From: Salinibacter ruber DSM 13855
GTDB taxonomy: Bacteria > Bacteroidota > Rhodothermia > Rhodothermales > Salinibacteraceae
DNA: 64,000 bases
Reading direction: 5' to 3'
Assembly (NCBI RefSeq): GCF_000013045.1
Contig: NC_007677.1
Location: 3,096,203 to 3,160,202 of the forward strand
The translations under genes and the position numbers were made by a program. Shown here in pieces: positions 14,893-60,408 of this stretch. Within the stretch, counting starts at the first letter, position 1, and every line of letters begins with the position of its first letter. The notes beneath the pieces were generated by a model that saw only the letters and a list, made by a program, of their open reading frames with translations, searched no databases and was not told the origin of the DNA.

Positions 14893-14955
14893 AACCGGCC
14901 GCGCACACATTGATCGGTCGTCCCTGCTTTTCCTTCACCACCTGCACTGCCGCCA

Positions 14956-16892: not shown

Positions 16893-16894
16893 CG

Positions 16895-30338: not shown

Positions 30339-30392
30339 CGCCGAATACGACTGCCCCCACGCTTCCCCATCCCCTTTTCGTTCCTGCCGACC

Positions 30393-41640: not shown

Positions 41641-41838
41641 GAGGGGCGGGGCGATTTCGACAATTGGCGGTGAAAGCAACGTATTGCCGAGCGGGCCTTC
41701 CTGTCCATCCGCCCCCGGGAAAATCAGACCAAATGTGCCCGAATTGCCGTCCGTTCGTGTCCGCACTCGCCCTTGTGAAGTTTCCCCAAAACCAGGGATC
41801 CGGTTGTAAGATCGGGGCGCCTCGGGAGACTCATTATA

Positions 41839-42986: not shown

Positions 42987-43115
42987 CCGACAACGCCGGG
43001 CCTCTTGCCGTCGGGGCAGCACGGCCCCGCTGGGCCTTCCCGAAAACCTCTCCTCCGACACGCGTGTACACGCCACGGCACGTCACATTTTCCCGCACTG
43101 CCCGCTGCGCCCCTC

Positions 43116-44468
43116 ATGTCCACGCGTTCGCTCGCCGACGCCCTTTCGGAGCGCCTGCTCGACACGTTTCCGGCCGACCAGGCCTACACGAAGGCCGACT
43201 GGGCGACGGACGCGATGCCGGAGCCCCTCCGTCACTACCTGACCCACCTCCTGCGGCACCATCATCGGCGCGAGGCGCGCCAGCTGCGCCGGGCGCGGAC
43301 CGACTGGGTGGACTACGACCACCCGGAGATGGAACAGGCCACCCATTCGTTTCTCGACGCGACGGAGCAGCACATGCAGGTGCCCCGTGACCAGTGGACC
43401 GACACGCTCCGCACCGCCGCCCGCCGCACGACGAACTACCTCGTGCGTCCCGTCCCGACACTGCGCGCCTTTGTATTCGAGGACGCCGCCGGGGCGGTGC
43501 CGGTGCCCCAGGTGCAGTGGCGCATGCGCTTCTTCGGGCCGTACGCCTACCTTCGAAACGCCGTGCAGGCCTTCGCCGACAAGCAAGACCGGGACGCCTT
43601 CACCCCGGATGCCTTTGAGCGTGTCCTCCGGCGCGTCGACGAGCGCATGACGGCGGACTTCGACGCGGACCGCTGGCTCGACCTGCTCGATCCCCTCTTC
43701 GACACGGCCCGCTGTGCCACCGACCGCCCCCAGGTGCCCCTCCCGCTCCTGCGTACGTTCTTCGAGCAGAAGAACGCCGCCCCTCTCGTCGAACGCCTGA
43801 CCGCCCACGGCCGGACCGCAGACGCCGACGCCGTGGCCCCCGATACGCTGCGTCGACTGATCAACGCGGCCCCCGCCCAGAGCTCTTCCCCCGAAGTCCC
43901 CTCCGGAAAACGCGACGCCCCGGACGCCCCTCTGGACCCCGACCTCCACAAGCCGACCGACGAGGCCTCCGCCCCGCGGTCGAACTCCTCGTCGGAGGCC
44001 GCCCCCGAAGCCACACCGATGTGGAAGCAGTTCGAGCAGGACGCCAGCCGGCGCCGCACCGAGACCGACGCGTCCAACGATGACGCCCAGCCCCTCTGGG
44101 CCCAGTTCCAGCAGCGTCCCGCAGACGGATCCAGGCAGACGAACGCTTCCTCTCCCCCTACGGGTGCGGACTCGTCCTCTTCGTCGGGCGGGCGGTCGAC
44201 CGCCTCCGACCCCGACGACGCCCTGTCGGCCCTGGAACGGGAGGTGTTCGGGCCGTCGCACACGCCGAAGCGGGAGGTGTACGTAGACGCCCTCTTCGAC
44301 GGCGACCGGGACGCCTACCGCCGCGTGTTGAAGCGCCTGCGCACGGTGGACAGTTGGAGCGACGCCTCCCAGATCATTTCGGACGACGTATTTCGGCCCT
44401 ACCAGGTCAACATCTACAGCGACGCGGCGGTCCACTTCACCAATGCCATCGAGGCGACCTTTCGCTGA
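43116..44468 (+). CDS. Hypothetical protein (possible target of the upstream ECF sigma)
   Basis: No recognisable domain. Contains the internal repeat P[ML]W[KA]QF[EQ]Q twice within a Ser/Asp/Pro-rich disordered segment. ATG at 43116. Confidence 0.5.
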   Translation: MSTRSLADALSERLLDTFPADQAYTKADWATDAMPEPLRHYLTHLLRHHHRREARQLRRARTDWVDYDHPEMEQATHSFLDATEQHMQVPRDQWTDTLRTAARRTTNYLVRPVPTLRAFVFEDAAGAVPVPQVQWRMRFFGPYAYLRNAVQAFADKQDRDAFTPDAFERVLRRVDERMTADFDADRWLDLLDPLFDTARCATDRPQVPLPLLRTFFEQKNAAPLVERLTAHGRTADADAVAPDTLRRLINAAPAQSSSPEVPSGKRDAPDAPLDPDLHKPTDEASAPRSNSSSEAAPEATPMWKQFEQDASRRRTETDASNDDAQPLWAQFQQRPADGSRQTNASSPPTGADSSSSSGGRSTASDPDDALSALEREVFGPSHTPKREVYVDALFDGDRDAYRRVLKRLRTVDSWSDASQIISDDVFRPYQVNIYSDAAVHFTNAIEATFR

Positions 44469-44606: not shown

Positions 44607-45233
44607 TCACGCCGTCTCCAGCCCGATGTGCCGAAGCACCTCGTCGGGACAGCCGGTCCACTCGGCCACAAACTGGTTGCCCTGATACTGCAGGTCCTCC
44701 ATTCCCATCTTTGAACTGAAAAACCCCGAGGCGGTCAGGTCGCGGAGGCTGTTGAAGAACTCGACGCCCGGCTGCATCTCCGGCGCGGCGGCCTCCGGCC
44801 ACGCGATGTCGTCGAGCAGCCCCTGCTGTTGGGCCTCGGTGCACTCGACGAACGGGGTGCCGTGCCGGTCGAGGCACGTGTAGTCGATCCACGCCAGCCC
44901 CCCGCGAAAGGCCGCCTGCTGCTCCTCGCGGTCGGGCAGCGCCTCGTCGGTCAGGATGTGGTCGATAAATTCCGGCACGCCCGCGTCGGTGGCACTGCCG
45001 GAACGGTCGTCCGCCGGGATGATCCAGTCGGTCAGCACGCGGACCGTCTCGAACTCGTGGTCGGTAAGGAGCTGACGGTCGTAGTCTTGCGGCGCCGGCC
45101 GGGTGGGGGCCTGTTCGGCCTGCTGCTCGCGGGCCCGCTGCACGTCTTCGGAGGAGCAGGCCACGCTAAAGGTGGGCGCGGCCGCCATCAGGCCCAGCAT
45201 CTTGAGGGCGTCTCGGCGGTTGAGGTCGCTCAT
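44607..45233 (-). CDS. Gluconate 2-dehydrogenase subunit 3-family protein (Tat-exported small subunit of a GMC oxidoreductase)
   Basis: Twin-arginine signal MSDLNRRDALKMLGLMAAAP. Family-typical WIIPADDRSGSATDAGVPEFID block. ATG at 45233. Confidence 0.75.
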   Translation of the reverse strand: MSDLNRRDALKMLGLMAAAPTFSVACSSEDVQRAREQQAEQAPTRPAPQDYDRQLLTDHEFETVRVLTDWIIPADDRSGSATDAGVPEFIDHILTDEALPDREEQQAAFRGGLAWIDYTCLDRHGTPFVECTEAQQQGLLDDIAWPEAAAPEMQPGVEFFNSLRDLTASGFFSSKMGMEDLQYQGNQFVAEWTGCPDEVLRHIGLETA

Positions 45234-45333
45234 GGAAGTCGGGGGAGGCGGTGAGGAAACGACGTGCGGACAGGAATGCTCAGGGTGAAGGGCGCGCGGC
45301 GGGCGCGCCCTCCCTCTCGGGGACGCAGGCGGC

Positions 45334-47067
45334 TCAGATGTTGCCCTTGTTGCGCTGGTCGATGATGTACTCGGAGGTGCGCATCGAGAGGGCAAGGATC
45401 GTCCACGTCGGATTCTTGTGCGGCATCGACGTGAACGGCCCGGCGTCGGCCACGAACAGGTTGTCCACGTCGTGGGCCTGGCACTGCGCGTTGAGCACCG
45501 AGGTGTCCGGGTCCGCCCCCATCCGGGTCACCCCTGCCTCGTGGATGATCTCGCCCGGCATGGTGATGCCATAGCCGTCTTCCTTGCTCGGCACCGAGCC
45601 GAGCGGCTCGGCCCCGGCCGATCGCAGAATCTCTCGCCCCTTCTCCTGCATGTGCTTGACCTGCAGGTACTCCTCCTCCCCCCAGGAGTGGTGGAAGCGC
45701 AGGACCGGAATGCCGTACTCGTCGCGGGCGTCCGGGTCGATCTCGCAGTAGTTGTCCCGGCGGGCAATCGACTCGCCCCGCCCGGACATCCCGACCGTTG
45801 CCCCGTAGAAGCGCCGGTAGTCGTTCTTGAGCTGCTGGCCATAGCCGCCCCCGCCCTTCTTCTTGGTTTCCTCGTCGCCGGGAAACATGGCGTTGAGGTT
45901 TTGGATGCCGCTGCCGAAGCCATAGCCCGGCATCCCGCGCCCGCCCCACAGCTCGAAGTGGTAGCCCCGTGGAAAGTCGAGGTCCTGGTCGTGGGCCCAC
46001 CACGGAATGTAGGAATGCATGCCCCCGACCCCGTCGCAGTTGTGGGCCGGCTGGTCCATCAGCTGCGGGGCCACGCCCATGATGGTCGACCCTGTCGAGT
46101 CCATCAGGTAGCGCCCCACCGCGCCGCTGGAGTTGGCCAGGCCGTTGGGGTGCTGGCGGGAGGTGGAGTTGAGCAGAAGACGGGCCGACTCGCACGCGCT
46201 GGCGGCCAGGACCACCACGTCGGCCTTCACCTTCTGCTCCCGCCGGCTCTGGGTGTCGACGTAGGAGACGCCAGTGGCCTGCCCCTCCTGGTCGGTGGTC
46301 ACCTCCCGTGCCATCGCGTGGGTGATCAGGGTCACGTTGCCGGTCTGGAGGGCCGGGTCCAGCAGCACCGGCGGCGCCGAGAAGTTCGAGTGCGTCGTGC
46401 AGCCCCGGTTGCACTGCGCGCAGTAGTGGCAGGGCGCCCGGCCGTTGTGCTGCTCGGTCAGGATCGAGAGGCGGGACGGGATGACCGGCACCCCAACGTC
46501 CTCGGCCCCGCTCTTGATGAACTTCTCGTAGCAGCGGGGCTCGGGGGGCTCCATAAAGATGCCATCGGGGGAGTTGTAAAATCCCTCCTCCGACCCGAAG
46601 AGGCCAATCAGCCGGTCGACCCGGTCGTAATAGGGCTTCAGGTCCTGGTAGTCGATGGGCCAGTTCTGTCCGTGGCCGTCGACGCTCCGCCCGTTGAAGT
46701 CGTCCGGCCCGAAACGGAGGGAGATGCGGCCCCAGTGGTGGGTGCGCCCGCCCAGCATCCGGGCCCGGAACCAGTTCCAGTTGGTGTCCTCGGCGGTCGT
46801 GTACGGCTCCCCCTCAATGTCCCATCCCCCAAGGCACGCGTCCATCTCCCCAAAGGGACGCGCCGTCGTCGAAGCCCCCCGGCGGGGCGAGGAGTAGTTC
46901 CAGTCAAACATCGCCCCGTCCTCCTCGACGCTCCACTCCGGGCCGGCCTCCAGGACCACGACGTTGGCCCCGGCCTCCGCCAGGACCTTCGCGGCCATGC
47001 TGCCCCCCGCGCCGGAGCCAACAATGCAGACATCGTAGGTGTCGGGGGTTTCCTGAACAAACGGCAT
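45334..47067 (-). CDS. GMC-family FAD-dependent oxidoreductase (large subunit)
   Basis: N-terminal FAD fold YDVCIVGSGAGGSMAAKVLAEAGANVVVLEAG and C-terminal GMC signature with catalytic His (VADAGPFTSMPHKNPTWTILAL). ATG at 47067. Confidence 0.85.
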   Translation of the reverse strand: MPFVQETPDTYDVCIVGSGAGGSMAAKVLAEAGANVVVLEAGPEWSVEEDGAMFDWNYSSPRRGASTTARPFGEMDACLGGWDIEGEPYTTAEDTNWNWFRARMLGGRTHHWGRISLRFGPDDFNGRSVDGHGQNWPIDYQDLKPYYDRVDRLIGLFGSEEGFYNSPDGIFMEPPEPRCYEKFIKSGAEDVGVPVIPSRLSILTEQHNGRAPCHYCAQCNRGCTTHSNFSAPPVLLDPALQTGNVTLITHAMAREVTTDQEGQATGVSYVDTQSRREQKVKADVVVLAASACESARLLLNSTSRQHPNGLANSSGAVGRYLMDSTGSTIMGVAPQLMDQPAHNCDGVGGMHSYIPWWAHDQDLDFPRGYHFELWGGRGMPGYGFGSGIQNLNAMFPGDEETKKKGGGGYGQQLKNDYRRFYGATVGMSGRGESIARRDNYCEIDPDARDEYGIPVLRFHHSWGEEEYLQVKHMQEKGREILRSAGAEPLGSVPSKEDGYGITMPGEIIHEAGVTRMGADPDTSVLNAQCQAHDVDNLFVADAGPFTSMPHKNPTWTILALSMRTSEYIIDQRNKGNI

Positions 47068-47321
47068 GCAGGCAAAAAGACGTAGGAAGAGCAATGCGCT
47101 TTGCAGAAAGTAATCACGGGGTGGATTCAGACGCAACCAAATATCCCGGCCCAGGGCGGCGTCTCAAAATTTGGAACCGGTTCCGGGCGTTGTGCAATCT
47201 GGAAGCGGTCCCGAACTTCTCTCGATATTGTTACGGCGGGTCTCGTCTTCTATCATACACGGTCCGAGCACTGCGTCTCACCGCGCGTTCCTCCCTCCTC
47301 GAACCACCGCCGCCCCGAGCC

Positions 47322-49289
47322 ATGGACTCGTACGCCCCTCCGGCCAACGCCTCCGAACAGGCCACCCGGCCCGACACGCAACACGAACGGGTCGAGACCC
47401 TCATCTTCGACGATCCGGCCGAGATGGCCCATCGCGTGGCCCGGCGCATCGCCACCCTAATTGAGGAACGGCAGGCCGTCGACCAGCAGGCGGTTCTTGG
47501 CCTGCCGACCGGGTCCACCCCCATCGGCGTGTACCAGGAGCTCATCCGCATGCACCGGGAGGACGGGCTCGACTTCTCGAACGTGGTGACGTTCAACCTC
47601 GACGAGTACTACCCCATGGACCCGAGCAGCCTGCAGAGCTACCACCGGTTCATGGACGAGAACTTCTTCAACCACGTCAACATCCCGGCAGACCAGATTC
47701 ACATTCCCCGCGGCGACATTCCGCCGGACGCCGTGGAGCGCCACTGCGTGGAGTACGAGCACGAGATCGAAAAGGCCGGCGGAATCGACCTTATGCTGCT
47801 CGGCATCGGGCGCTCCGGCCACGTGGGCTTCAACGAGCCGGGCTCCGGGCGGCAGACGCGCACCCGCCAGGTGATCCTCGACGAGATCACGCGCAAGGAC
47901 GCCGCGAGCGACTTCTTTGGGGAGGCCAACGTGCCCCAGGAGGCGATCACGATGGGCGTGGGCACCATCCTCGACTGCGACGAGATTGTGCTCATGGCCA
48001 CGGGGGAGCACAAGGCCCCCATCGTGAAGCGGGCGGTGGAGAAGCCCCCCTCCCGCGAGGTGACGGCCAGCTACCTGCAGGACCACCCCAACGCGACCTT
48101 CTATCTCGACCGGGCGGCCGCGGGCGAACTCACGCGGGAGAAGATGCCGTGGCGCGTCCGCGAGGTCGACTGGACCGACCAGAAGGCCAAGCGCGCCGTC
48201 ATTTGGCTGTCCGAGACGCTCGACACCCCGATCCCCCGCCTCGAGGCGTCTGACTACTACCAGAACCAGCTCCACAGCCTGGTTCACCGCTACGACGACG
48301 TCGACGATCTGGCCCGGGAGGTCTTCGAGGACCTGCGCCAGCGCATCACCTACCGCGAAAACCTGCTCTCCGACGAGCGCGTCCTCATCTTCAGCCCGCA
48401 CCCGGACGACGACGTCATCTCGATGGGGGGCATGTTCGACAAGCTCGTGTCCAACGGCAACGACATCACCGTCTCGTACATGACGAATGGGTCGGTGGCC
48501 GTCTTCGACGCCGACGTGCGCCGCTACCTCCGCTTTATCGGCCTCAGCAGCGACGCGCTCAACATGAGCCCCGAGGACCTGTCGGGCTTCCGCAACCGGC
48601 GCGAGGAGATCGAAACCTTTTTTGCCGAGAAGGACCCGGCGGAGGTGGACCCGTCGGCGGTGCAAACCCTCAAGGCCCACATCCGGTACGGCGAGGCGAT
48701 CGCGGCGATCGAGGTCATGGGCCTGGACGCCGACCACGCCGAGTTCCTAGACATGCCCTTCTACAAGACGGGGCGCGTCCGCAAGGATCCGATTACGGAG
48801 GACGACGTGGACGTGGTGCACGACCTGCTCACGGAGGTCGAGCCCACCCACATTTTCGTGGCCGGCGACCTCTCGGACCCCCACGGCACGCACCGAATGT
48901 GCTACAAGGCCATCAAGGAGGCCCTCCGCCAGTACAACGACGAGGCCACCGTGCCGGCGGGCGCCAATGGCGAGGCCCCCACGGCGAACGAGACCCCCCG
49001 TCCTCAGCCCCTCGTGTGGCTCTACCGTGGGGCCTGGCAGGAGTGGCCGCTCCACGAGGCCGACGTGTTCGTGCCGCTCTCCAAGGCGGATCTCGACCGC
49101 AAGGTCGAAGCCATCTTCAAGCACGAGAGCCAGAAGGACCGGGCGATGTTTCCGGGCGCCTACGACGACCGCGAATTTTGGGAACGGGCCCGCGACCGCA
49201 ACCGCGACACCGCCGACGCCCTGAACGGCCTCGGGCTCCCGGAATTCTACGCCGCCGAGGCGTTCGTGACGACCTACGACATGCCCTGA
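47322..49289 (+). CDS. nagB: Long-form glucosamine-6-phosphate deaminase (NagB-II): NagB domain fused to LmbE/PIG-L-like domain
   Basis: N-terminal NagB motifs ([29 protein letters not shown]). C-terminal PIG-L signature ([18 protein letters not shown]...H..D). 655 aa. ATG at 47322. Confidence 0.8.
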
Positions 49290-49399
49290 TATGCCCCGCG
49301 TCCCTGCCGCCCCGCCCCGAAGCAAACAAGCACGACTCGGCCGTCGCCCCGACGCGGCGTAGCCGCCCCCGGTGCTCCCTCGATCAGAATTGCGTCCCC

Positions 49400-50368
49400 A
49401 TGCCTGCTTCGAGCCGACGCGCGTTCCTGAAAACCTCCGCCGCCCTGGCCCTCGGCACCGCCCTTCCCGCGGGCGGGCCGGCCTCCGCCCGCGCCCCCGA
49501 CACGGCCCGAAGCGGAAGGGCTGCCGCGGGGAGCGGGCCTCTCTACCGGATCTCCCTTGCGCAGTGGTCCCTCCACCGGGCCCTCTTCGACGGCGACCTC
49601 GACCCGCTCGACTTCGCCCGCACGGCCCGTGAGGCGTTCGACATCGGGGCGGTCGAGTACGTCAACCAGTTCTTTATGGACCGGGCGACGGACGCACAGT
49701 ACCTGCAGACAATGAAGACGCGCGCCGAAGACGCGGGCGTGCAGGGCCTGCTCATCATGTGCGACGGGGAGGGCGCCCTCGGACACCCGGACGCCGCGGA
49801 GCGAACGACCGCCGTCGAAAACCACCACAAGTGGGTCGAGGCCGCCGCCATGCTCGGGTGCCACTCGATTCGCGTAAACGCAGAGACGATGGGCGAGGGG
49901 GCGCCCGCCGAGCAGCAAAAGCGGGCGGCAGACGGGCTCCGTCGCCTCACCGAGTTTGCCGCCGAGCGGGACATCAACGTGCTCGTCGAGAACCACGGCG
50001 GCCTCTCGTCCGACGGCGAGTGGCTCGCCGGCGTGATGAACGAGGTCGACCACGAGCGCTGCGGCACGCTCCCGGACTTCGGCAACTGGCAGATCCGCGA
50101 GGGAACGTCGTACGACCCGTACGAGGGCGTCCGCGACCTCATGCCCCACGCACAGGCCATCAGCGCGAAGGCGTACGGCTTCGATGACCGGGGACGGGAG
50201 GCAACCCTCGACTACACAAAGCTAATGAGCATCGTGCTCGACGCGGGGTATCGGGGCCACGTGGGCATCGAGTACGAGGGCGACGGGCTGAGCGAGCGGG
50301 CGGGCATTCGGGCAACGAAACAGCTTCTGATGGACGTGCGCGGCCAGCTCGAAAGTGAATATACCTGA
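49400..50368 (+). CDS. Xylose-isomerase-like TIM-barrel protein (sugar phosphate isomerase/epimerase family), Tat-exported
   Basis: Twin-arginine signal [25 protein letters not shown]-endonuclease-2/xylose-isomerase-like barrel motifs ([25 protein letters not shown]). Confidence 0.75.
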
Positions 50369-50754
50369 ACAGCCAAGCAAGGAGCGAGCGGACCGCCTGC
50401 GGGGCCTTCAAATCCGGGCCCATCTCGCGCCGGCCGCCCGCAAGACACGCGCCCCCCTGTGCGACGATACGCTTGGCGTTTGAGATTGACGGGATGACGT
50501 ACGACTTCTGACCGGGCGATGCATGGCCGGGCGTCGGTGCCCGTCGTCTCGGGGGCGCACTCCGCTTCGCTGCGCGCGGATCCCTCCGCACTGATTTCTC
50601 GCTCCCTCTGTCTCGTCACCTCCCACAGTCTCGCCACCTCCCACGAAGACGCCGGTTGCCGAAGCAACGCTGCGGGACGTCGGGCAGGGCGGGACGCTTC
50701 CCCCTTCTTCCTCCCCTCTCGAGGACACTCGCTTCACTCACCTCCCTTTCCCTC

Positions 50755-51930
50755 ATGGCCCTCAATCGCACGATTCGCTACGGCATGGTGGGGGGCGGGC
50801 CCGGGGCCTTCATCGGCGCCGTGCACCGCTCCGCCGCCGCCCTCGACGGCGAGATGAATCTCGTCGCCGGGGCCTTCTCCTCCTCGCCCGAAAAATCCAG
50901 GGAGCAGGGCGACAACCTGCACCTCGACCCCGATCGGGTCTACGACACCTACGAGGAGATGGCCGACGCGGAGGCCGAGCGGCCCGACGGCATCGACGTC
51001 GTCTCCATCGTCACGCCCAACTTCCTGCACCACGACGTGGCCCGCACCTTCATCGACCGGGGCTTCCACGTCATCTGCGACAAGCCGATGACCACCACCC
51101 TCGAGGACGCCGAGGACCTGTGTCGGCGCGTCGACGAGCAGGACGTGGTGTTCTGCCTTACCCACAACTACGCCGGCTACCCGCTGGTGAAGCAGGCCCG
51201 GGCGCTCGTAGAACAGGGCCGCCTCGGCGCCCTGCGCAAGATCGTAGTGGAGTACCCGCAGGGCTGGCTGAACCGGCGGCTCGAGGCGGAGGGCAACAAG
51301 CAGGCCTCGTGGCGCACCGACCCGGACAAGGCCGGCGCCGGCGCGCTGGGCGACATCGGGACCCACGCCGAGCACCTGGCCCGGTACGTGACCGGCCTGT
51401 CGCTGGAGCGCATGTGTGCCGACGTGGGAACGGTCGTGGAGGGACGCCCGGTGGACGACGACGCCAGCATCCTGGCCCGCTACGAAGGGGGCGTGCGCGG
51501 CCTCATTCACGTCTCGCAGATCTCGGCCGGGGAGGAAAACAACCTCCGCCTGCGCGTCTACGGGACGGAGGCCGGGCTCGACTGGCGCCAGGAGGACCCG
51601 CATCGGCTGACCCTCCTCACCGACATCAACGGCGAGGCCCCGCAACAAATCTATAGCCACGGCCGCGCCTCCCTCGCCGATTCGGTGCAGCCGTTCGTCC
51701 GCACCCCGCAGGGCCACCCCGAGGGCTTCATCGAGGCCTTCGCCAACCTCTACCGGAGCGCGGCCCACGCCATCGCGGCCCACGAGGCCGGCGTGGAACC
51801 CGAGCCGTGGGCCCGAGACTTCCCGACGGTGCAGGATGGGGCCGCCGGCGTCCACTTCATCGAAACCGCCCTCGAAAGCAGCGAGCAGGAGGCCTGGGTC
51901 GACGCCAGCTACACGCCCCCGCGCACATAA
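50755..51930 (+). CDS. Gfo/Idh/MocA-family NAD(P)-dependent oxidoreductase
   Basis: Rossmann start IRYGMVGGGPGAFIGAVH and the EKP motif (VICDKPMT). No signal peptide, so probably cytoplasmic. Confidence 0.85.
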   Translation: MALNRTIRYGMVGGGPGAFIGAVHRSAAALDGEMNLVAGAFSSSPEKSREQGDNLHLDPDRVYDTYEEMADAEAERPDGIDVVSIVTPNFLHHDVARTFIDRGFHVICDKPMTTTLEDAEDLCRRVDEQDVVFCLTHNYAGYPLVKQARALVEQGRLGALRKIVVEYPQGWLNRRLEAEGNKQASWRTDPDKAGAGALGDIGTHAEHLARYVTGLSLERMCADVGTVVEGRPVDDDASILARYEGGVRGLIHVSQISAGEENNLRLRVYGTEAGLDWRQEDPHRLTLLTDINGEAPQQIYSHGRASLADSVQPFVRTPQGHPEGFIEAFANLYRSAAHAIAAHEAGVEPEPWARDFPTVQDGAAGVHFIETALESSEQEAWVDASYTPPRT

Positions 51931-52037
51931 TTCCTCATATTTCGCTTCGCATTTCCCTCCGGCCGTCGACCGGCCGGGTCGGATCGAAGCCCGAACGCAT
52001 ACACGGTTTTCGTTTCACGACCCTTGTACTGCCCACC

Positions 52038-52811
52038 ATGACTGTACTGCCCCCCATGACCGGACGCACGATGCGCGCAGCCACGATCCTTATCGCACTC
52101 TCGTCCGCCCTCCTTCTAACCGCCCCCGCGAGCGCCCAGGAGATGGACGCCCCCAATACACTGACGCCGGCGGAGCGGGCCGACGGCTGGACGCTGCTGT
52201 TCGACGGGGAGACGGCCGCAGGATGGCGCGGCTACAACGACGAGGACTTCCCCGACACCGGCTGGACAATCGAGGACGGGGTCCTCACCATCGAGGGCGC
52301 CGGCGGGGGCGTGAGCGGATCGGGGGGCGACATCATCACGACCGAGACGTACGGGGACTTCGTCCTCAAGCTGGAGTGGAAGATCTCCGAGGGCGGCAAC
52401 AGCGGCATCTTTTACCGCGCCATCGAGCAGCCGGACCAGCCCATCTACTGGTCGGCCCCGGAGATGCAGATCCTGGACAACGCCAATCACCCGGACGCAG
52501 GCCGGGGCGAAAACGGCAACCGAAAGGCCGGATCGCTCTACGACCTGATCCCGGCCGATCCCCAGACGTTCTCCGGCCACGGGGAGTGGCAGGACGTCAT
52601 GATCGTCGTCGAGGGCGGCCACGTTGAGCACTGGCTCAACGGCCAGAAGGTGCTGGAGTACGAGACGTGGACCCCCGGCTGGTACCGGATGATTCGCGAC
52701 AGCAAGTTTCGGACCCACCCGGAGTTCGGAGACGCGCGGGAGGGACACATTGGCCTTCAGGACCACGGAACGACGGCCCACTTCCGCAACATCAAGATCA
52801 AGGAGCTCTAG
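52038..52811 (+). CDS. DUF1080-family protein (3-keto-disaccharide hydrolase-like), secreted
   Basis: Signal peptide ([24 protein letters not shown]) and DUF1080 blocks ([45 protein letters not shown]). Start is ambiguous among ATGs at 52038, 52056 and 52071. Confidence 0.8.
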
Positions 52812-52887
52812 CGCCCCCTGTCCGGGAGCCCCCCTGCCACGACGACCGTTCCGCCACAACCACCGATACAGTAAAAACGCCGACACG

Positions 52888-54299
52888 ATGGACCGACGCA
52901 CGTTTTTGAAAGGATCGGCCCTGACCGCCGCGGGCCTCAGTGTGGTGCCCCGCTCCGTTTTGGGCGGCGCCGGCCACCAGCCCCCGAGCGACACCCTCAA
53001 CATCGCGGGCATCGGCGTCGGGGGACGGGGCACCAGTAACATGAACGCGATGACGAGCGAGAACATCGTCGCCATCTGCGACATCGACTTCGACCACGTC
53101 GACCAGTCGCTGCGCGACGGCGACGGCAACGTGGCGGACGGGCTCGGGGCCCTGCACGAGGCGTACGAGCAGGCCGAGCGCTACGCCGACTACCGCCGCA
53201 TGTTCGACGACCTGGAAGACGAAATCGACGGGGTCGTCATCTCGACCCCGGACCACCTCCACGCCGTCGCCGCGCAGGAGGCGATGAAGCGCGGACTGCA
53301 CGTCTACGTCGAGAAGCCGCTGACCCGAACCGTCCGGGAGGCACGGACGCTGATGGAAACGGCCGACGCGATGGACGTCGTAACCCAAATGGGCAATCAG
53401 GGGCACACCCATCCGGACGGGCGTCGCGCGATTGAGTGGGTGTGGGACGGGGCCATCGGCACGGTGCACGAGATTCACGCCTGGACCGACCGCCCGGCCA
53501 GCTGGTGGCCGCAGGGCGTCTCTCGTCCAGAAGGCTCGATGCCCATCCCCGATGCGGTCAACTGGGACCTCTTCCTGGGCCCAGCCCCGGAGGTGCCCTA
53601 CCACGAGGCCTACCATCCGTTCGACTGGCGGGATGGGTCGACTACGGCACCGGCGCGCTCGGCGACATGGGGGCGCACCTCATCGACCACGCGATGTGGG
53701 CGCTCGACCTGGGGGCCCCGACGGAGGTGTGGGGCTCGTCGAACGCCTTCGGCCGGGACGGCGACGAGCGGGTCTCCTGGCCCACCGCCGAGACGGTCCA
53801 CTACACGTTTGGACGGGGCGGCCGGGATCCGGTCCGTCTGACCTGGTACGACGGCGGCCTGCTGCCGCCTCGCCCGCAGGCCCTCCCGAACGACGTGCCA
53901 CTGGTGCGGGACCTCGGCGCGAACGAGGACGGGCCGCCGCCGTCCTGGGGCGGCGCAATCTGGGTCGGGGACGAGGGCATTCTGATGCACGACACCTACG
54001 GCCGCAACCCGCGCCTCTACCCCAAGGAACTGGAGGCCCAGCACAGCGATGCCCCTCGGCAGCTGCCCCGGGTCGGCACGAGCCATCAGATGAACTGGGT
54101 GGAGGCCTGCAAAGGGCGGGCCGAGGCGACGTGTCCCTTCGACTACGCGGCCCCGCTGACGGAAACGCTCCTTCTGGGGGTGGTGGCCCTCCAGGCCGGC
54201 GCCCCGGTGCGGTACGACCCGCGCTCGATGGCCATCCCCAACGCGCCGGCGGCGGAGCAGTACCTGCGCCGGAACTACCGCGGGGAGTGGTCGCTGTAG
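52888..54299 (+). pseudogene. Gfo/Idh/MocA-family oxidoreductase with Tat signal, interrupted by a frameshift near 53629
   Basis: Tat signal [21 protein letters not shown] and Rossmann fold in the 52888..53841 frame; the conserved continuation ...FDWR|[20 protein letters not shown]... is in the 53436..54299 frame. The switch maps to the G-run in tggcgggatgggtcgac, consistent with one missing G. This may be a sequencing error rather than a true pseudogene. Confidence 0.7.
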
Positions 54300-54345
54300 C
54301 GCCCCGGCGTCCCCGTCGTCCTTCCTCGCTCATGCCCTTGTCCCG

Positions 54346-55350
54346 ATGTCCTACCGCCCCGTCACCCTCTTCACCGGACAGTGGGCCGACATGCCCCTCA
54401 CCCCCCTCGCCGAAAAGGCCGCGGGCTGGGGCTACGACGGCCTGGAACTGGCCTGTGCGGGCGACCACTTCGATCCCGCACGGGCCGCAAACGAAGACGG
54501 CTACGTCCGCAACAAGCGCGACCGACTAGCGGCGCACGACCTGGACGTCTGGGCCCTCAGTCAGCACCTGGTGGGCCAGGCCGTGAGCGACCGCATCGAC
54601 GAGCGCCACGAGGACGTGCTGCCGGAGCGCGTGTGGGGCGACGGCGACCCCGACGGCGTGACGCGGCGCGCCATCGAGGAGCTGAAGCGCACCGCCGCGG
54701 CGGCGAGTGCGCTCGGGGTGGACGTGGTGACCGGCTTCACCGGCTCCCCCGTCTGGCACCTGCTGTACGCCTTTCCGCCCACCCCGCAGTCGATGATCGA
54801 CGAGGGGTACGAGGCCTTCGCCGATCAGTGGACGCCCATCCTCGACGCCTTCGCGGACGCGGGCGTGCAGTTCGCCCTGGAGGTGCACCCCACCGAAATT
54901 GCGTTCGACCTCAGCACGGCCCGGCGCACGCTCGACGCCCTCGACGGCCACTCGGCGTTCGGCTTCAACTACGACCCCAGCCACTTTGGCTACCAGGGCG
55001 CCGACTACCTCGCCTTTCTGGACCGGTGTGCCGACCGCATCGACCACGTCCATATGAAAGACGTCTGGTGGGCCGACGACCGGCAGCCCGCCGGCGTGTT
55101 CGGCGGGCACCTCCCGTTCGGGCACGAGGACCGGTACTGGGACTTCCGCTCCATTGGCCGCGGCAAGATCGACTTTGAGGCGATCATTCGTCGCCTCAAC
55201 CGAATCGGCTACACCGGGCCCCTCTCCATCGAGTGGGAGGACAGTGGCATGGAGCGGGAGCACGGGGCCGCGGAGGCCCTCGGGCGGGTCCGCGCCGTCG
55301 ACTTCCCGCCCGCCGACGCCGGATTCGAGGAGGCGTTCGGGGAGGGATAG
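54346..55350 (+). CDS. Xylose-isomerase-like TIM-barrel protein (sugar phosphate isomerase/epimerase family), cytoplasmic
   Basis: TIM-barrel motifs ([33 protein letters not shown]) with no signal peptide. Confidence 0.8.
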
Positions 55351-55384
55351 TCCCCGCCTGCCCCCACGCAGCGGCCACGTCGCG

Positions 55385-55696
55385 CTACCGCCCGTCCTCC
55401 TCGCGCAGGCGGCGGGACACGAGCATGCAGAGGGCCCCCAGCGTGGGGTCGTCGAGCGCGTAGTAGACGTGCACGCCGTCGCGCCGCCGCGCCAGCAGCC
55501 CCTCCTCCGCCATCAGGCTCAGGTGCTTGCTGACGTTGGACTGCCGGATGCCGGTCGCCTCCACCAGTTCGCCGACCGTCTGCTCCCCCGTTGCGTGCAG
55601 TGCGCTGAGCAGCCGGAGCCGTGCCGGTGCGCCGAGCACGTCGAACCGGCGCGCCACGGGCTTAATGTCGTCGGGCGGAAGCAGGGGACGATCCAT
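55385..55696 (-). CDS. ArsR/SmtB-family transcriptional regulator
   Basis: Winged HTH (ARLRLLSALHATGEQTVGELVEATGIRQSNVSKHLSLMAEEGLLARRRDGVHVYYAL). Confidence 0.85.
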   Translation of the reverse strand: MDRPLLPPDDIKPVARRFDVLGAPARLRLLSALHATGEQTVGELVEATGIRQSNVSKHLSLMAEEGLLARRRDGVHVYYALDDPTLGALCMLVSRRLREEDGR

Positions 55697-55740
55697 GAGC
55701 TGGGTGCGAAAACAAAACGGACGCGCTTCGGGAAACGGGG

Positions 55741-58254
55741 CTAAAAGGTGAGGTGGAGGCGTGCGTTCAGGGTCCGCGGGGTCAGGCGCTTGGGCACGCG
55801 CTCATAGCCCTGCGTCCAGCTGTAGTCGACGGTGTTGTCCATGTCGAAGAGGTTGAGCACTTCGAGCGTGAGCTCCAGGTGGACGGGCCCGCCGATTCCG
55901 TTTTGGACCAGCTCGATGCGCTTGGTCGCCCCCACGTCCACGCGCCGGTAGGCCGGGAGCCGTCCGCTCATCCGGTCGCCCGGAATGCGGGTCTCGGCCC
56001 CGCCCGGGGTTTTCGGCCCTGGACTGGTGGGGGTGTACGGCAGCCCACTGCCGTAGAGCAGGCGCATGTGCACCTTCCAGGACTTGTCCCCCGGCACGTA
56101 GTCCTGCACAAACGCCGAAAAGGTGTGGCGCTGATCGGCGGGGCGGGGCAGGAGGCCCGTTCGGTTTTCCCGAAACTCGTCGGAGAACCCCGTCGGCGCC
56201 TGGGCCGCGTACCGCTCCAGCGCCGCGTCCGTGAACCGCTCGCGGGAGACCAGGTAGCTGTAGTTGAACCAACTCTCCAGGCCCGGGACGAGTTCGCCCC
56301 GAAGCTGAAAGTCCACCCCGTAAGTGTACCCGTAGGTGTCGTTCTCGCCGGAATAGTTCACCCGCACGTCCTCGATGGTGTAGGAAATCAGGTCGTCGAG
56401 GTCTTTGTAGTACGCCTCGGCCCGCAGGTACAGCCGCCGATCGGGAAAGAAGTACTCCCCGCCGAATACGTACTGCACCGACCGTTGCGACCGGATGTCT
56501 CGGTTTTGGTCCAGCGTGCCCCGGATCGACGCGGTGTCCGTCGGGGTGCCCCGAAGCTCCCGGTAGGTCGGCTTCTGGTGATAGATGCCCCAGGCCCCCG
56601 TGAGGGTGAGACGGTCGGTGGCCACGAAGCGGCCCGACAGGCGAGGGGAGACCGTCCACTCGTCGTTAAACGAGAAGTAGTCGGCCCGCACCCCGCCCGT
56701 GATGGTGAGGCGGCCGTCGGTGGGGAGCACATCCACGGCGTCCTGGAGGTGGGCCCCAAACTGGTACTCGTCGAATGTCGCGCTGTCGTCGAGCCGGTCG
56801 ACCAGCGTAGAGTCTTGGCCGTCTTCCACCCGACCGTCGATCGTGGTCCGCTCATTGAGGTTGTCGTCGAAGTGGAGGCCGCGCAGGTGCCAGCCGCCCT
56901 TCAGCGTCTGTCGGTCGAGGTCCCATTCGTAGCGCCCCCGTCCGGTCCGACGCCGCACCTCCACGGAGTTATCGGCAAACCGGGTCACCGTAGACTCCCC
57001 CTGGAGCACGCTGGTGCAGTTTGACGGGTTGTCTCCGCCCGTGGGGTTGACCTGGCACACCCGTCGGTCGCTCTGGATGTCGAAGCTCTCGGTCTCCCGC
57101 GTTCCGAAATAGGCAAAATCGTGCGCCAGCTTAAGCCGGTCGGAGAGGTCCGTGTGGAGCCGCACGCCCCCAAACGTGGTGGTGTATCCGTCCGTGCGGG
57201 CCCCGTTTAGGCTGGCCCGGAGCGCCTTGAAGTCGGAGGGCCGCTCCGGATCGAGGCTGATGACCCCGAAGTAGGTGGTCCGTTCCTCCGGCTCCAGGTC
57301 GAAGGTATTGTCGGCCCAGATGCCGAGGGCCTCTACCGAGACGCGATCGGAGAACCGGTAGGACACCGTGCCCTGCAGGTCGGTGAAGCGGGGGCTGTAG
57401 TCGCCCTTCAGGTCCTGCGTTCCAAAAAACCGGCCGGGCTGCGCCCGCCGCATCCCGAACCCCCACCCGAGATCGCCCCCGAGGGCCGACGACTGAAGGT
57501 GCGCGCTGGCGTCGAGCGTGGAGAGGTCGACCGACCCGCTCAGGGGGTCACTCTCGGGGCGGACGTACTGCACGTCAAGCGCGGAGGAGAGCTTGCCCCC
57601 GTACTCGGGCGGAAAGCCGCCCGTGTAGAACGTGATGTCCGAGGCCAGGGCCGGGTTCAACAGGCCCATCCCCTCCTGCTCCCCCTGCCGGGGCCGGAAG
57701 GGGAAGAAAATCTCAAAGCCGTTGATGAAGACGAGGTTCTCGTTGTACCCCCCGCCGCGCACCGAATACTGCTGGGTCAGCTCGTTGTTGGTCGCCACTC
57801 CCGGCGTGGTCTTGAGGGCCCGGAAGCCGTCTTTGAAGGGCGTGGGCATGTTCTGCACGTCGGCCGGGTCGACCTTGTAGACACCGGGCCGGTTGGGGAC
57901 GGCCCCGTCCGTCACCGTTAGCTCGTCCATCTTCAAGACGGTGGAGGCCAGGGTTGCGTCGAGCTGCGTCGTCCCCTCCGCCACCGTGACCGAGTCGACG
58001 CGCGTCGCAAAGCCAACCGCCGAGAACCGGAGCGTGTAGCGGCCCGTGGGAAGCTCCAGGCGGTAGCGGCCGTCGGCACTGGTGGCCGTGCCGAAGTCGG
58101 TGCCCTCCACCAGGACCGTTACGCCCGGCAGGGGCGCTCCTTGCACCGAGTCCGTAACGGTGCCCGTGACGGTGCCCCAGGTCTGGGCGTGAGCAGGCGC
58201 GGCCCCCAAGGGCCAACAACAGGCCGCAAGAATCAAAACGCGGTACAGGCGCAT
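55741..58254 (-). CDS. TonB-dependent outer-membrane receptor with N-terminal carboxypeptidase-regulatory-like domain
   Basis: Signal peptide, CarbopepD_reg-like domain (GTVTDSVQGAPLPGVTVLVEGT...GRYRLELPTGRYTLRFSAVGF), a plug region and a beta-barrel ending in a C-terminal Phe (ARLHLTF). Confidence 0.85.
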   Translation of the reverse strand: MRLYRVLILAACCWPLGAAPAHAQTWGTVTGTVTDSVQGAPLPGVTVLVEGTDFGTATSADGRYRLELPTGRYTLRFSAVGFATRVDSVTVAEGTTQLDATLASTVLKMDELTVTDGAVPNRPGVYKVDPADVQNMPTPFKDGFRALKTTPGVATNNELTQQYSVRGGGYNENLVFINGFEIFFPFRPRQGEQEGMGLLNPALASDITFYTGGFPPEYGGKLSSALDVQYVRPESDPLSGSVDLSTLDASAHLQSSALGGDLGWGFGMRRAQPGRFFGTQDLKGDYSPRFTDLQGTVSYRFSDRVSVEALGIWADNTFDLEPEERTTYFGVISLDPERPSDFKALRASLNGARTDGYTTTFGGVRLHTDLSDRLKLAHDFAYFGTRETESFDIQSDRRVCQVNPTGGDNPSNCTSVLQGESTVTRFADNSVEVRRRTGRGRYEWDLDRQTLKGGWHLRGLHFDDNLNERTTIDGRVEDGQDSTLVDRLDDSATFDEYQFGAHLQDAVDVLPTDGRLTITGGVRADYFSFNDEWTVSPRLSGRFVATDRLTLTGAWGIYHQKPTYRELRGTPTDTASIRGTLDQNRDIRSQRSVQYVFGGEYFFPDRRLYLRAEAYYKDLDDLISYTIEDVRVNYSGENDTYGYTYGVDFQLRGELVPGLESWFNYSYLVSRERFTDAALERYAAQAPTGFSDEFRENRTGLLPRPADQRHTFSAFVQDYVPGDKSWKVHMRLLYGSGLPYTPTSPGPKTPGGAETRIPGDRMSGRLPAYRRVDVGATKRIELVQNGIGGPVHLELTLEVLNLFDMDNTVDYSWTQGYERVPKRLTPRTLNARLHLTF

Positions 58255-58405: not shown

Positions 58406-59107
58406 TCACACCCCGATCGCGCCCGACAAGGCGACCAGCTCTAGGTAGGGCGCCACGAGCCCCATTCCCGTTCCCGCCGCGGCCTGGGCCGGGGTGTGGG
58501 CCCGGCTCCGCACACGCGCCCAAAGCACGAGCCCCGTCAGGCCCGCCCCGCCGGCCAGCACGGCGGCTCCTGCAGGGCCCGCATCGAGGACCCGCCCGGG
58601 CACATGCCTGTGAACGAACGCGAGGGTCGACACCGCCCCGGCCACCGACGCGCAGTGCACCGAGATTTTCCAGCGGGTGGTAATGAGAACGAGGAGGGTC
58701 GTGTTGAGGGCGTGGCACGCCACCAGCGCCGCCAGCAGCCCCCGCCCCGCGACGTCGATCCCGAGCACCACGGCCAGCGCCGCTCCGTTGGCCCCCAGCG
58801 CCACGAGGAACGGCTCGGTGCGCTTCGTCCGGTCCCGGATCTCCAGCGACGCAATCCGCCCCTGCAGCCGCATCCCGCCCACGTACACGAGCGGCACCAC
58901 GGACAAAAACACGAGCCCAATCCCCGCCCCCCACGCGACGCCGGCCCACGACGCCCCCACGTGGGCCAGCACCAGTCCGTATACCAGCGGGGGCAGGGCG
59001 AGGGGGCTCACCACGTAACTCACGGCCACCGCCGCCCACAGGCCAACCCCGCCGGGCGCATCGGTCTGGGAGGCAGCGGGATTGGGGAGCGGGTTGGGGG
59101 GCGACAT
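58406..59107 (-). CDS. Hypothetical polytopic membrane protein
   Basis: Six or seven hydrophobic segments. No confident family assignment; PAP2-like was considered but the motifs are not clear. Confidence 0.45.
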   Translation of the reverse strand: MSPPNPLPNPAASQTDAPGGVGLWAAVAVSYVVSPLALPPLVYGLVLAHVGASWAGVAWGAGIGLVFLSVVPLVYVGGMRLQGRIASLEIRDRTKRTEPFLVALGANGAALAVVLGIDVAGRGLLAALVACHALNTTLLVLITTRWKISVHCASVAGAVSTLAFVHRHVPGRVLDAGPAGAAVLAGGAGLTGLVLWARVRSRAHTPAQAAAGTGMGLVAPYLELVALSGAIGV

Positions 59108-59143
59108 ATGCCTACGTTGGCGGAATTCCGGGCGATCGGGACG

Positions 59144-60355
59144 CTACATTAACACCACGGCCGCGAGGGCGAGCAGAATGAATCCAATCAGCAGCATAAT
59201 TGAATACACGAGCAGCAGGAGGAACGCCTTGATCGTCGACTTGATGAGTCCTTGCTCGTAGACGTGCCCCATCGCGACGACGAGGTACAGGAGGGGCGCT
59301 AGTTCCACCCAGGTCGCGGCGGTCTGGACCCACGGGGCCTCGACCTCGCCGAGCAGGATCCCGACGGTGAAGGCGAAAAAGGCGAACGCATGCAGGTGGA
59401 GACTGAAGATGAGGTGCTCCACGTAGAGACGCCCCCGCCGGATGTAGAGCAGCTTGAGGAGAAAGGCAAAGACGGGCAGCATAAGGAACATGACGTAGGG
59501 CCCCCGATCAATCATGCCCCCGATCAGGTCTCGGGGGTTCCGGATGGCCTCGGCCACCTTTGCTCGGAGGAGCGGCTCGAGACGCGCCTGGGTCTCCGCC
59601 CCCCCAAACAGCACATCCACCGTGCCCGGATTTTGCCGAAACGACCGCGCCCACCGCTCGCGCTGCTCGGGACTGCCAAAGAACCAGGGCGCCGAGGCCA
59701 CTGCGGTCGTGTCCATCCCGGCCATCCCCGTCTCCACCTGGACCGTGTCCGCCTGCGCGGGCGACATCTGCGGATTGAAGGGCACCTGCACCCCGCCTCC
59801 GGCGGTGAGGGCGAGCACGGTAAACAGGACGAACGTGGTAAATAGGTACAGCCGGAAGGGGCGGATGTAGCGCTTGCGCCGCCCGTTGATGTACTCCTTC
59901 GTGAGCCGGCCGGGCAGGAACAGGAATTTGGGCAGGGTCCAGAGTACCCGCATGTCGAGCTCAATGACGGCCTCCAACGCCTCATTGAGCATGTGCCAGA
60001 GGGGCACGACCCGTTCCGCAGCCTTCTGCCCGCACTGCGAACAGTACGGCCCGTGCAGGAGCGCGCCGCAGTTCTCACACTGGTCTTCGGGGGCCCCGGA
60101 CGAAGGCGATGTGCCCGAGTCGGTCGGGGCGGACGCCGACTCGGAGGGCGGGGGCTCCTGCGGATCCGCCGCCTCCACGTCCGGCTCCTCGTCGAGGTCG
60201 GCCATCGCCTCGATCTGCGCCAGGGCGTCCTCGGCCGCGGCCCGGGCTTCGTCCGGGTCCGATGCGGCCTGTCCGGACGGGGCCTCGTCGCCGGGGCCTC
60301 CCAGGGGATCGTCTTCGGGACGGCCGGACTCAGAGCCGAGCGGCGGGGCGCTCAT
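59144..60355 (-). CDS. DUF3667-domain protein (zinc-ribbon plus membrane domain)
   Basis: CENCGALLHGPYCSQCGQK zinc ribbon, then YINGRRKRYIRPFRLYLFTTFVLF and further TM helices typical of DUF3667. Asp/Glu/Pro-rich N-terminus. Confidence 0.65.
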   Translation of the reverse strand: MSAPPLGSESGRPEDDPLGGPGDEAPSGQAASDPDEARAAAEDALAQIEAMADLDEEPDVEAADPQEPPPSESASAPTDSGTSPSSGAPEDQCENCGALLHGPYCSQCGQKAAERVVPLWHMLNEALEAVIELDMRVLWTLPKFLFLPGRLTKEYINGRRKRYIRPFRLYLFTTFVLFTVLALTAGGGVQVPFNPQMSPAQADTVQVETGMAGMDTTAVASAPWFFGSPEQRERWARSFRQNPGTVDVLFGGAETQARLEPLLRAKVAEAIRNPRDLIGGMIDRGPYVMFLMLPVFAFLLKLLYIRRGRLYVEHLIFSLHLHAFAFFAFTVGILLGEVEAPWVQTAATWVELAPLLYLVVAMGHVYEQGLIKSTIKAFLLLLVYSIMLLIGFILLALAAVVLM

Positions 60356-60372
60356 GGGGGCCGAGCGAAACG

Positions 60373-60408
60373 TGTGCGTGAACTCGGGAATTCGTTATTA
60401 TTCACGCA
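60373..60408 (-). terminator. Candidate intrinsic terminator downstream of proS
   Basis: Perfect 9-bp stem gtgcgtgaa/ttcacgcac with an 18-nt loop. On the minus strand it is followed by cacguuucgcu (a short U-stretch), 100 bp past the proS stop. Confidence 0.4.

Follow-up and report, generated by a model that had tools for sequence, protein, structure and literature searches.

Gene content and layout of the cluster

The DNA examined here is a 64-kb stretch, called the window below, from the Salinibacter ruber DSM 13855 lineage, and the proteins that it encodes are those of S. ruber. Ten genes occupy positions 44607-58254 (Table 1). Those between 44607 and 55350 encode a flavin adenine dinucleotide (FAD) dehydrogenase of the GMC family with its small subunit, a NagB fusion protein, a DUF1080 protein, two Gfo/Idh/MocA oxidoreductases and two xylose-isomerase-like TIM barrels. 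One oxidoreductase and one TIM barrel carry a twin-arginine translocation (Tat) signal. This segment is likely to be a composite locus for non-hydrolytic glycoside cleavage via 3-keto intermediates. An ArsR regulator and a TonB-dependent receptor lie beyond it.

A first-pass annotation had proposed that this DNA encodes a 3-keto-glycoside pathway. Every gene in its list was found where it had placed it, and the Pfam family assignments of the ten genes score above the curated cut-offs, including the PF06439, PF01261 and PF01408 profiles suggested there as a check. The three twin-arginine motifs that it reported are also present in the sequence. The Pfam TAT_signal model gives 23.8 bits for the Tat-exported dehydrogenase (cut-off 22.7) and 18.4 bits, below the cut-off, for the Tat-exported TIM barrel. 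Real genes were told apart from spurious open reading frames (ORFs) by their third-position guanine plus cytosine (GC) content; the G+C content of the window is ~67%. The cluster enzymes are acidic (isoelectric points 4.2-5.1) and the Shine-Dalgarno motif is absent at every start codon, both of which are consistent with the source organism.

By consensus matching only, three of the four sigma-70-like matches in 15.5 kb lie in the 254 bp from which the GMC and plus-strand operons diverge, tentatively marked as a probable promoter region. A scan for terminator consensus sequences gave 12 matches against 7.6 +/- 3.6 in shuffled sequence, which is not above expectation. An Rfam scan of 44.0-59.5 kb at E values up to 0.1 returned no match, hence no known riboswitch or small RNA in the 386-bp spacer. 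This spacer is 86% conserved in another Salinibacter contig (L097), and the equivalent gap is 52 bp in a relative, L087, whose Tat dehydrogenase is 81% identical. The spacer is specific to Salinibacter.

Table 1. Genes and intergenic features of the S. ruber locus, in window positions
Feature	Position	Strand	Family match and remarks
Gluconate_2-dh3 small subunit	44607-45233	-	PF13618, 124 bits
GMC oxidoreductase	45334-47067	-	PF00732 + PF05199
Divergent intergenic region	47068-47321		254 bp; separates the GMC operon from the plus-strand operon
NagB + PIG-L fusion	47322-49289	+	PF01182 + PF02585
Tat-signal TIM barrel (xylose-isomerase-like)	49400-50368	+	PF01261
Spacer	50369-50754		386 bp, non-coding; between the Tat TIM barrel and cytoplasmic Gfo genes
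Cytoplasmic Gfo/Idh/MocA	50755-51930	+	PF01408 + PF22725
DUF1080	52056-52811	+	PF06439, 184.5 bits (cut-off 26.8); alternative start 52038
Tat-signal Gfo/Idh/MocA	52888-54299	+	PF01408 + PF19051/PF22725 over both halves; frameshifted
Cytoplasmic TIM barrel (xylose-isomerase-like)	54346-55350	+	PF01261, 142 bits
ArsR	55385-55696	-	NF033788, 79.5 bits
TonB-dependent receptor	55741-58254	-	CarboxypepD_reg domain + plug

The two predicted glycoside dehydrogenases

The GMC protein has no signal peptide and begins directly at the FAD-binding fold. It matches the alpha subunit of FAD-glucose dehydrogenase (6A2U) with an E value of 2e-41 over the N-terminal 320 residues, and the large subunit of fructose dehydrogenase is also among its best solved relatives. 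The protein has a cysteine-rich motif, PCHYCAQCNRGC, with the spacing C-x5-C-x3-C, which we take to be that of the 3Fe-4S ligands in 6A2U. The spacing is kept in all 15 syntenic two-subunit homologues that were aligned. A GMC protein encoded in a C-glycoside cluster of Novosphingobium, with no small-subunit gene beside it, lacks the motif. The small subunit begins with the twin-arginine signal NRRDALKML, followed by a lipobox-like cysteine (FSVAC); about half of its homologues have both the RR motif and a cysteine after the signal. These features suggest that the small subunit probably carries the signal-less GMC protein across the membrane and anchors it.

A third, cytochrome c, subunit was sought as well. 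No credible ORF in the window has a CxxCH motif, and an ORF with at least two such motifs occurs in one of 26 related GMC-anchored loci. By homology and context the GMC protein is predicted to be a periplasmic glycoside 3-dehydrogenase of the LacA/GlycDH type. When proteins of plasmid records were searched with it, the informative matches were in Hymenobacter (57%) and Pseudoalteromonas (44%). Matches at ~30% identity in Rhizobium and Phaeobacter were dropped, being in unrelated contexts.

The gene for the other predicted dehydrogenase, the Tat-exported Gfo/Idh/MocA protein, is split over two reading frames by a one-nucleotide deletion between 53630 and 53631. The first-pass annotation had listed it in the cluster and missed the frameshift. 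Comparison with S. ruber GCA_024809725.1 showed 17,655 bp of identical sequence except for one missing C at this position. Restoring the C gives a 470-residue protein, as in many S. ruber and S. altiplanensis records. The DSM 13855 annotation carries a truncated 317/363-residue product (ABC43917.1, Q2RZJ9), and the 317-residue product is also found in GCA_041941415.1, GCA_943908195.1 and GCA_024807455.1. The broken allele is present in four assemblies and in assemblies from at least seven separate read sets. A sequencing error was considered and rejected, because the allele recurs across many independent data sets; it is a real allele of one lineage. The gene is a pseudogene in the DSM 13855 lineage. 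A strain whose gene is unbroken differs nowhere else in these 17.6 kb, which makes the mutation very recent.

In repaired form, the protein matches 8TDF (E 5.6e-94) and 8TDH (E 1.3e-90), both structures of Alistipes AL3. The residues named for the AL3 active site are Gln161, Arg192, Trp195, Asp248, His252 and Tyr349 (Nasseri et al., bioRxiv 10.1101/2024.03.25.586180). All six align to identical residues of the repaired protein, Q171, R202, W207, D260, H264 and Y371. Truncation to 317 residues removes D260, H264 and Y371, the catalytic Asp, His and Tyr. The Gfo/Idh/MocA Rossmann domain and the C2-type C-terminal domain were matched in both gene halves and in an intact orthologue (P0001). The best NCBIfam match is NF058561, "BT_2158_fam, glycoside 3-dehydrogenase" (461.6 bits, E 2.6e-138), for which the equivalog cut-off is 750 bits; on sequence the protein is a relative of the BT_2158 family and not a certified equivalent. 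It is predicted to be a BT2158/AL3-type glycoside 3-dehydrogenase with bound nicotinamide adenine dinucleotide (NAD). Its inactivation would leave the DSM 13855 lineage dependent on the FAD enzyme for the oxidation.

The DUF1080 protein, the TIM barrels and the cytoplasmic oxidoreductase

The DUF1080 protein matches BT2157-type structures with an E value of ~1e-57, and its N-terminus, judged by inspection, is an ordinary Sec-type signal ending in ASA. Comparison with eight conserved channel residues of BT2157 (E103, N134, E164, Q166, Y190, K245, Q273 and H275) showed that seven are identical. Proteins of this kind are now described as lyase/hydratases (Nasseri et al., bioRxiv 10.1101/2024.03.25.586180), so that the name "DUF1080 hydrolase" used in the first-pass annotation is outdated. 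The S. ruber protein is predicted to be a BT2157/AL2-type 3-keto-alpha-glycoside 1,2-lyase and 2-hydroxy-3-keto-glucal hydratase.

The cytoplasmic TIM barrel matches SCO6571 (2ZDS; E 7e-108). It also matches the Agrobacterium 2-hydroxy-3-keto-glucal hydratase AtHYD (8RO4) with an E value of 8e-45 over 300 residues; a direct search of solved structures gave none named a 3-keto-O-glycoside lyase. AtHYD works with a Gfo reductase, and the two turn the eliminated sugar back into glucose (PMC10628242). The cytoplasmic Gfo/Idh/MocA protein of S. ruber matches 3V5N (E 2e-117) and is predicted to be an NAD(P)H-dependent 3-keto-sugar reductase that would act as the partner of the cytoplasmic TIM barrel. 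Homologues of the two adjoin each other in L011, L012, L028, Deinococcus, Novosphingobium and Pseudoalteromonas. In Pseudoalteromonas the pair lies inside a DUF1080 and GMC module. In Novosphingobium resinovorum pSA2 (L090, 820023-839015) a TonB receptor, a GMC protein, a major facilitator superfamily (MFS) protein, DUF6379, a xylose-isomerase-like protein and a lactonase are followed by the pair. This suggests that the Gfo and TIM-barrel pair serves in general to salvage keto-sugars after elimination.

The Tat-exported TIM barrel is 61% identical to an uncharacterised Planctomyces structure, 4OVX (E 3e-108), and its family comprises ~320 representative clusters at E values up to 1e-30. A family-profile search places the subunits of C-glycoside deglycosidases next after 4OVX (5e-15 to 1e-8). 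Foldseek, run with a predicted model of mean confidence (pLDDT) 92.5, gives the same ranking, the modelled fold aligning with TM scores of 0.6-0.67. The family keeps E197, H199, D226, K257 and E291 at the strand ends. Remote similarity to the C-glycoside deglycosidases, together with gene context, leads to the prediction of a metal-dependent 3-keto-glycoside lyase, but the protein may instead be an epimerase or a hydratase. It is the least certain part of the cluster assignment.

Conservation of the core

Three sets of related loci were compared, the third made up of closer relatives. The set anchored on the Tat dehydrogenase comprises 42 loci of at least 18 kb, at 39-52% identity, with flanks of up to 10 kb on each side. 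DUF1080 is present in 16 of the 42, the cytoplasmic Gfo in nine, and the GMC protein with its small subunit and the cytoplasmic TIM barrel in eight each. NagB, the Tat TIM barrel, ArsR and the receptor were found in none of the 42. The set anchored on the GMC protein consists of 51 metagenome loci (within L098-L176; 57-68% identity), 26 of them at least 14 kb long. The small subunit follows directly after the GMC gene in all 51. Among the 26 longer loci, DUF1080 lies within 10 kb in 15 and a BT2158-type enzyme in six; NagB, ArsR and the receptor occur in none.

All six core genes are co-directional in two loci from Gemmatimonadota/Longimicrobiales (L011, L012) and clustered in L028. In L098 the cytoplasmic Gfo, Tat TIM barrel, Tat dehydrogenase, DUF1080, GMC and small-subunit genes stand in a row. 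The nearest non-Salinibacter relative, L087, has the same gene order as S. ruber, including NagB, with proteins 71-91% identical. Its cluster contains an MFS gene (5579-6877), and a BadF/BcrA-type ATPase, an SSF symporter, a CBM9 protein and a LacI regulator downstream (12524-17833) take the place of ArsR and the receptor. None of these five genes is found at the S. ruber locus. Two further relatives, L083 (72%) and L082 (82%), have a module that includes an MFS sugar transporter but no NagB.

The six-gene core thus recurs in Gemmatimonadota, Acidobacteriota, Gammaproteobacteria and Rhodothermales and is a conserved, modular unit. The first-pass annotation had noted that scattered orthologues in relatives would speak against a functional cluster; for the core, the orthologues are clustered even in distant phyla.

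Genes that do not belong to the core

The NagB fusion joins a NagB (glucosamine-6-phosphate deaminase) domain to a PIG-L/LmbE-type deacetylase domain. The whole protein matches NF002557, "deaminase-like", with 1007 bits (cut-off 384), and the N-terminal domain scores 252.8 bits against the equivalog cut-off of 236.9 in TIGR00502. The first-pass label "NagB-II" is loose for a protein that is a NagB and PIG-L/LmbE fusion. The fusion lies in the same place in L087, where it is 84% identical. None of the 42 + 26 distant core loci contains it, and neither do the L082 and L083 modules. Its association with the cluster is confined to Salinibacteraceae, where it is a family-level add-on. A literature search on the long NagB fusion returned only the NagB of the F. 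johnsoniae chitin locus, the activity of which could not be tested by its authors.

The ArsR protein fits an ArsR/SmtB-type metalloregulator model. Its gene lies 44 bp downstream of the receptor gene on the same minus strand, convergent with the sugar operon, and the two are apparently co-transcribed. The receptor scores 57.6 bits with the SusC/RagA model, for which the cut-off is 368, and it has no SusD partner, as no SusD domain was found in the neighbouring ORFs. The locus is not a Bacteroidota-type SusC/SusD polysaccharide utilisation locus. Salinibacteraceae and Rhodothermales often have orthologues of the receptor (55-90% identical). The Longibacter orthologue adjoins a DUF3667 gene and the Salisaeta orthologue stands alone; neither is near sugar genes. 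ArsR and the receptor are absent from the cluster of L087 and from all 68 distant loci. They are probably a separate neighbouring unit outside the sugar cluster, and the earlier view of a cluster with "its own regulator and TonB-dependent receptor" does not hold: neither gene accompanies the cluster elsewhere, and the receptor orthologues sit in unrelated contexts. A DUF3667 gene also lies near the receptor in S. ruber (58406-60394, minus strand), and is directly adjacent to it in Longibacter salinarum (L091, 507-4846). The receptor and DUF3667 may form a conserved pairing.

Other genes of the window were noted in passing. Two long ORFs just upstream of the cluster (40378-42330, minus strand, and 42987-44468, plus strand) have coding-like third-position GC and no Pfam match; with its many Ser, Asp and Pro residues, the second has a low-complexity look. 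A bacteriorhodopsin-like gene (PF01036; 24557-25489, minus strand) lies beside a histidine kinase with a seven-transmembrane N-terminal region (25671-27965, minus strand), and further PAS-domain histidine kinases and an HDOD protein are found nearby, at 19631-22573 and 28437-31226. A WS/DGAT (wax-ester synthase / diacylglycerol acyltransferase) gene (14914-16365, plus strand) is situated downstream of an MlaE/MlaF/MlaD lipid-transport operon (10855-13635). A literature search on the genes of the cluster in Salinibacter found nothing relevant.

Comparison with characterised systems

Clustered homologues of BT2156-2159 have been noted in Caulobacter, Pedobacter and Echinicola (Liu et al. 2021, PMC8121099). 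The combination of a LacABC-type dehydrogenase with DUF1080, "epimerases" and a reductase has also been noted, including in Bacteroidetes (Price et al. 2022, PMC9007349). The pathway was described recently, and its chemistry is already known. What sets the S. ruber locus apart is that its FAD enzyme has two subunits only, that its Tat TIM barrel is of the 4OVX type and that the NAD enzyme has been lost at strain level.

Among the closest known systems are B. thetaiotaomicron BT2156-BT2160 and Alistipes AL1-AL5 (Liu et al. 2021, PMC8121099; Nasseri et al. 2024, bioRxiv 10.1101/2024.03.25.586180). Like these, the locus has a Tat-type Gfo/Idh/MocA dehydrogenase predicted to bind NAD (~50% identity over 400 residues, with the same six site residues), a secreted DUF1080 protein that is a putative lyase/hydratase, a second, cytoplasmic Gfo/Idh/MocA protein and a periplasmic metal-type TIM barrel. 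The S. ruber periplasmic TIM barrel, however, is of the 4OVX subfamily, there is no SusR/DUF6377 regulator, and the dehydrogenase is under the NCBIfam equivalog cut-off and frameshifted. In addition S. ruber has the FAD-type dehydrogenase pair, the AtHYD-like cytoplasmic TIM barrel and the NagB fusion.

These additional enzymes have their counterparts in other systems. The Agrobacterium tumefaciens GlycDH operon (GlycDH with a Tat protein, AtOGE, AtHYD and a Gfo reductase; Bitter et al. 2023, PMC10628242) also has a GMC-type dehydrogenase with a Tat-signal partner and an AtHYD-like TIM barrel beside a Gfo/Idh/MocA reductase, and follows the same logic of oxidation, elimination, hydration and reduction. 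Neither S. ruber TIM barrel matched AtOGE, whereas DUF1080 and the BT2158-type enzyme are added. The Caulobacter crescentus LacABC cluster (Price et al. 2022, PMC9007349) likewise encodes a small Tat subunit and a periplasmic FAD dehydrogenase beside DUF1080, two TIM-barrel "epimerases" and a sugar reductase, and it has a transporter as well. A gene for cytochrome c (LacC), in contrast, is missing from the S. ruber window and from 25 of the 26 related loci, and the S. ruber cluster is without a transporter gene. The C-x5-C-x3-C motif of the GMC protein and the Tat signal on the small subunit are shared with the Burkholderia cepacia FAD-glucose dehydrogenase (6A2U) and the Gluconobacter fructose dehydrogenase (7W2J). 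Those enzymes are heterotrimers, whereas the S. ruber enzyme has two subunits only and its similarity is moderate. Unlike the C-glycoside deglycosidases (DgpBC / CarBC), the cluster has no ORF resembling a beta subunit, and its Tat TIM barrel is only remotely similar to theirs (5e-15; 13-18% identity).

Proposed pathway and its alternatives

The 3-keto-glycoside enzyme set named by the first-pass annotation is borne out by strong matches to the characterised 8TDF/8TDH, BT2157-type and 8RO4 structures and by the clustering of the core in distant phyla. What was observed is the families of the proteins, the conservation of active-site residues, the signal peptides and the conserved clustering of the genes; the steps were assigned following published systems (PMC8121099, PMC9007349, PMC10628242, bioRxiv 10.1101/2024.03.25.586180). 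In the proposed pathway, a glycoside in the periplasm would be oxidised at C3 by either of two enzymes. One would be the two-subunit FAD dehydrogenase, whose GMC protein would be exported by piggy-backing on the Tat small subunit and probably be lipid-anchored; the other would be the Tat-exported BT2158/AL3-type enzyme with its bound NAD. The 3-keto-glycoside would then lose its aglycone by beta-elimination. DUF1080 would act on alpha-linked substrates and also hydrate the glucal, and the Tat TIM barrel would probably handle the other anomer. In the cytoplasm, the AtHYD-like TIM barrel would hydrate 2-hydroxy-3-keto-glucal and the adjacent Gfo/Idh/MocA protein would reduce the 3-keto-sugar to an ordinary hexose.

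Every activity in this pathway is predicted from homology and context, and the substrate, the role of the Tat TIM barrel and the electron acceptor of the FAD enzyme are likewise inferred. Several observations weigh against it. The Tat dehydrogenase falls short of its 750-bit equivalog cut-off with 461.6 bits, and it is frameshifted in this strain. In the DUF1080 protein, Glu103 of BT2157, a position described by Nasseri et al. (bioRxiv 10.1101/2024.03.25.586180) as Glu or Asp with >95% conservation, is replaced by Val (residues ~70-80), in a loop two residues shorter. A sequence search of solved structures with the Tat TIM barrel matched none named a 3-keto-O-glycoside lyase, and ketose 3-epimerases and the 3-keto-glucoside 4-epimerase YcjR are nearly as close to it by fold as the C-glycoside deglycosidases. 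Finally, the S. ruber cluster has no gene for an inner-membrane sugar transporter. In relatives an MFS gene is found at this place, and a search of the S. ruber cluster for a remnant of the one in the nearest relative gave none.

The first-pass annotation had also suggested an amino sugar or glycoside as the substrate. N-acetylhexosaminides or other amino-sugar glycosides would then be cleaved oxidatively, N-acetylglucosamine (GlcNAc) would be phosphorylated, and deacetylation and deamination by the NagB/PIG-L fusion would lead to fructose-6-phosphate. The fusion heads the plus-strand operon in S. ruber and in L087, where the MFS gene comes next and the ATPase just downstream belongs to BadF/BcrA, a family that includes GlcNAc kinases. 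A BadF-family ATPase also adjoins the GMC/DUF1080 module in Pseudoalteromonas, and Nasseri et al. (bioRxiv 10.1101/2024.03.25.586180) report that AL3/BT3 needs no hydroxyls other than those at positions 3 and 4. The fusion family, however, is widespread and named only "deaminase-like", hexosaminidase-type or chitin-related genes are absent nearby, and NagB is missing from all 42 + 26 distant core loci and from L082 and L083 (72-82% identity). As the fusion is tied to the cluster only within Salinibacteraceae, the suggestion is weak and an amino-sugar pathway unlikely. A different pathway built from the same protein families, acting through 3-keto or inosose intermediates on C-glycosides, levoglucosan or scyllo/myo-inositol-type cyclitols, is very improbable. 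It would account for the C-glycoside deglycosidase subunits being the nearest characterised relatives of the Tat TIM barrel by family profile, for levoglucosan dehydrogenase as the best NCBIfam match of the cytoplasmic Gfo protein and for a weak match of the cytoplasmic TIM barrel to IolE. These scores, however, are far under the curated cut-offs (112 bits where 650 are required, and 44 where 290 are), the deglycosidases are only 13-18% identical, a DUF6379-type deglycosidase beta subunit is absent among the cluster genes, and the strongest matches (1e-45 to 1e-94) are to O-glycoside systems.

The frameshift raises the question of whether the locus is decaying or only partly functional, so that in the DSM 13855 lineage the pathway has ceased to work as a whole and the genes that survive have other functions or none at all. 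Loss of D260, H264 and Y371 through the one-nucleotide deletion, its recurrence across the four assemblies and seven or more independent read sets, the absence of an MFS gene or remnant and the replacement of Glu103 in DUF1080 are what such decay would predict. The other genes, however, are all intact with high third-position GC, the 17.6 kb that is otherwise identical in the intact-allele strain makes the mutation very recent, and the 470-residue protein is kept in many S. ruber and S. altiplanensis records. GMC and DUF1080 modules without the BT2158-type enzyme are moreover common elsewhere, so that the FAD branch can stand alone. Decay of the locus is therefore quite unlikely, and non-hydrolytic O-glycoside cleavage via 3-keto intermediates is the preferred reading of the cluster.

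A more specific version of this preferred reading, conceivable but doubtful, holds that the two periplasmic oxidants are coupled and not redundant. The FAD enzyme, which has no cytochrome c partner gene, would deliver its electrons to the respiratory chain, and the first 3-keto sugar made in this way would be the hydride acceptor that the NAD-locked enzyme needs; the 4OVX-type Tat TIM barrel would represent an uncharacterised class of periplasmic 3-keto-glycoside lyase/epimerase. If true, the FAD enzyme would prime and sustain the otherwise redox-neutral cycle of the BT2158-type enzyme.

Implications

In several phyla the FAD-type oxidant is found alongside the NAD-type one. The Tat-exported 4OVX-type TIM barrels, a well-populated and uncharacterised family, are flagged by the locus as candidate enzymes of the pathway. 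The DSM 13855 lineage without the NAD-type enzyme and a locus-identical strain with it are a natural experiment on the contribution of each oxidant. If the assignment is right, an extreme halophile would join gut Bacteroides, Alistipes and soil Agrobacterium as a bacterium with oxidative "alternative" glycoside breakdown.

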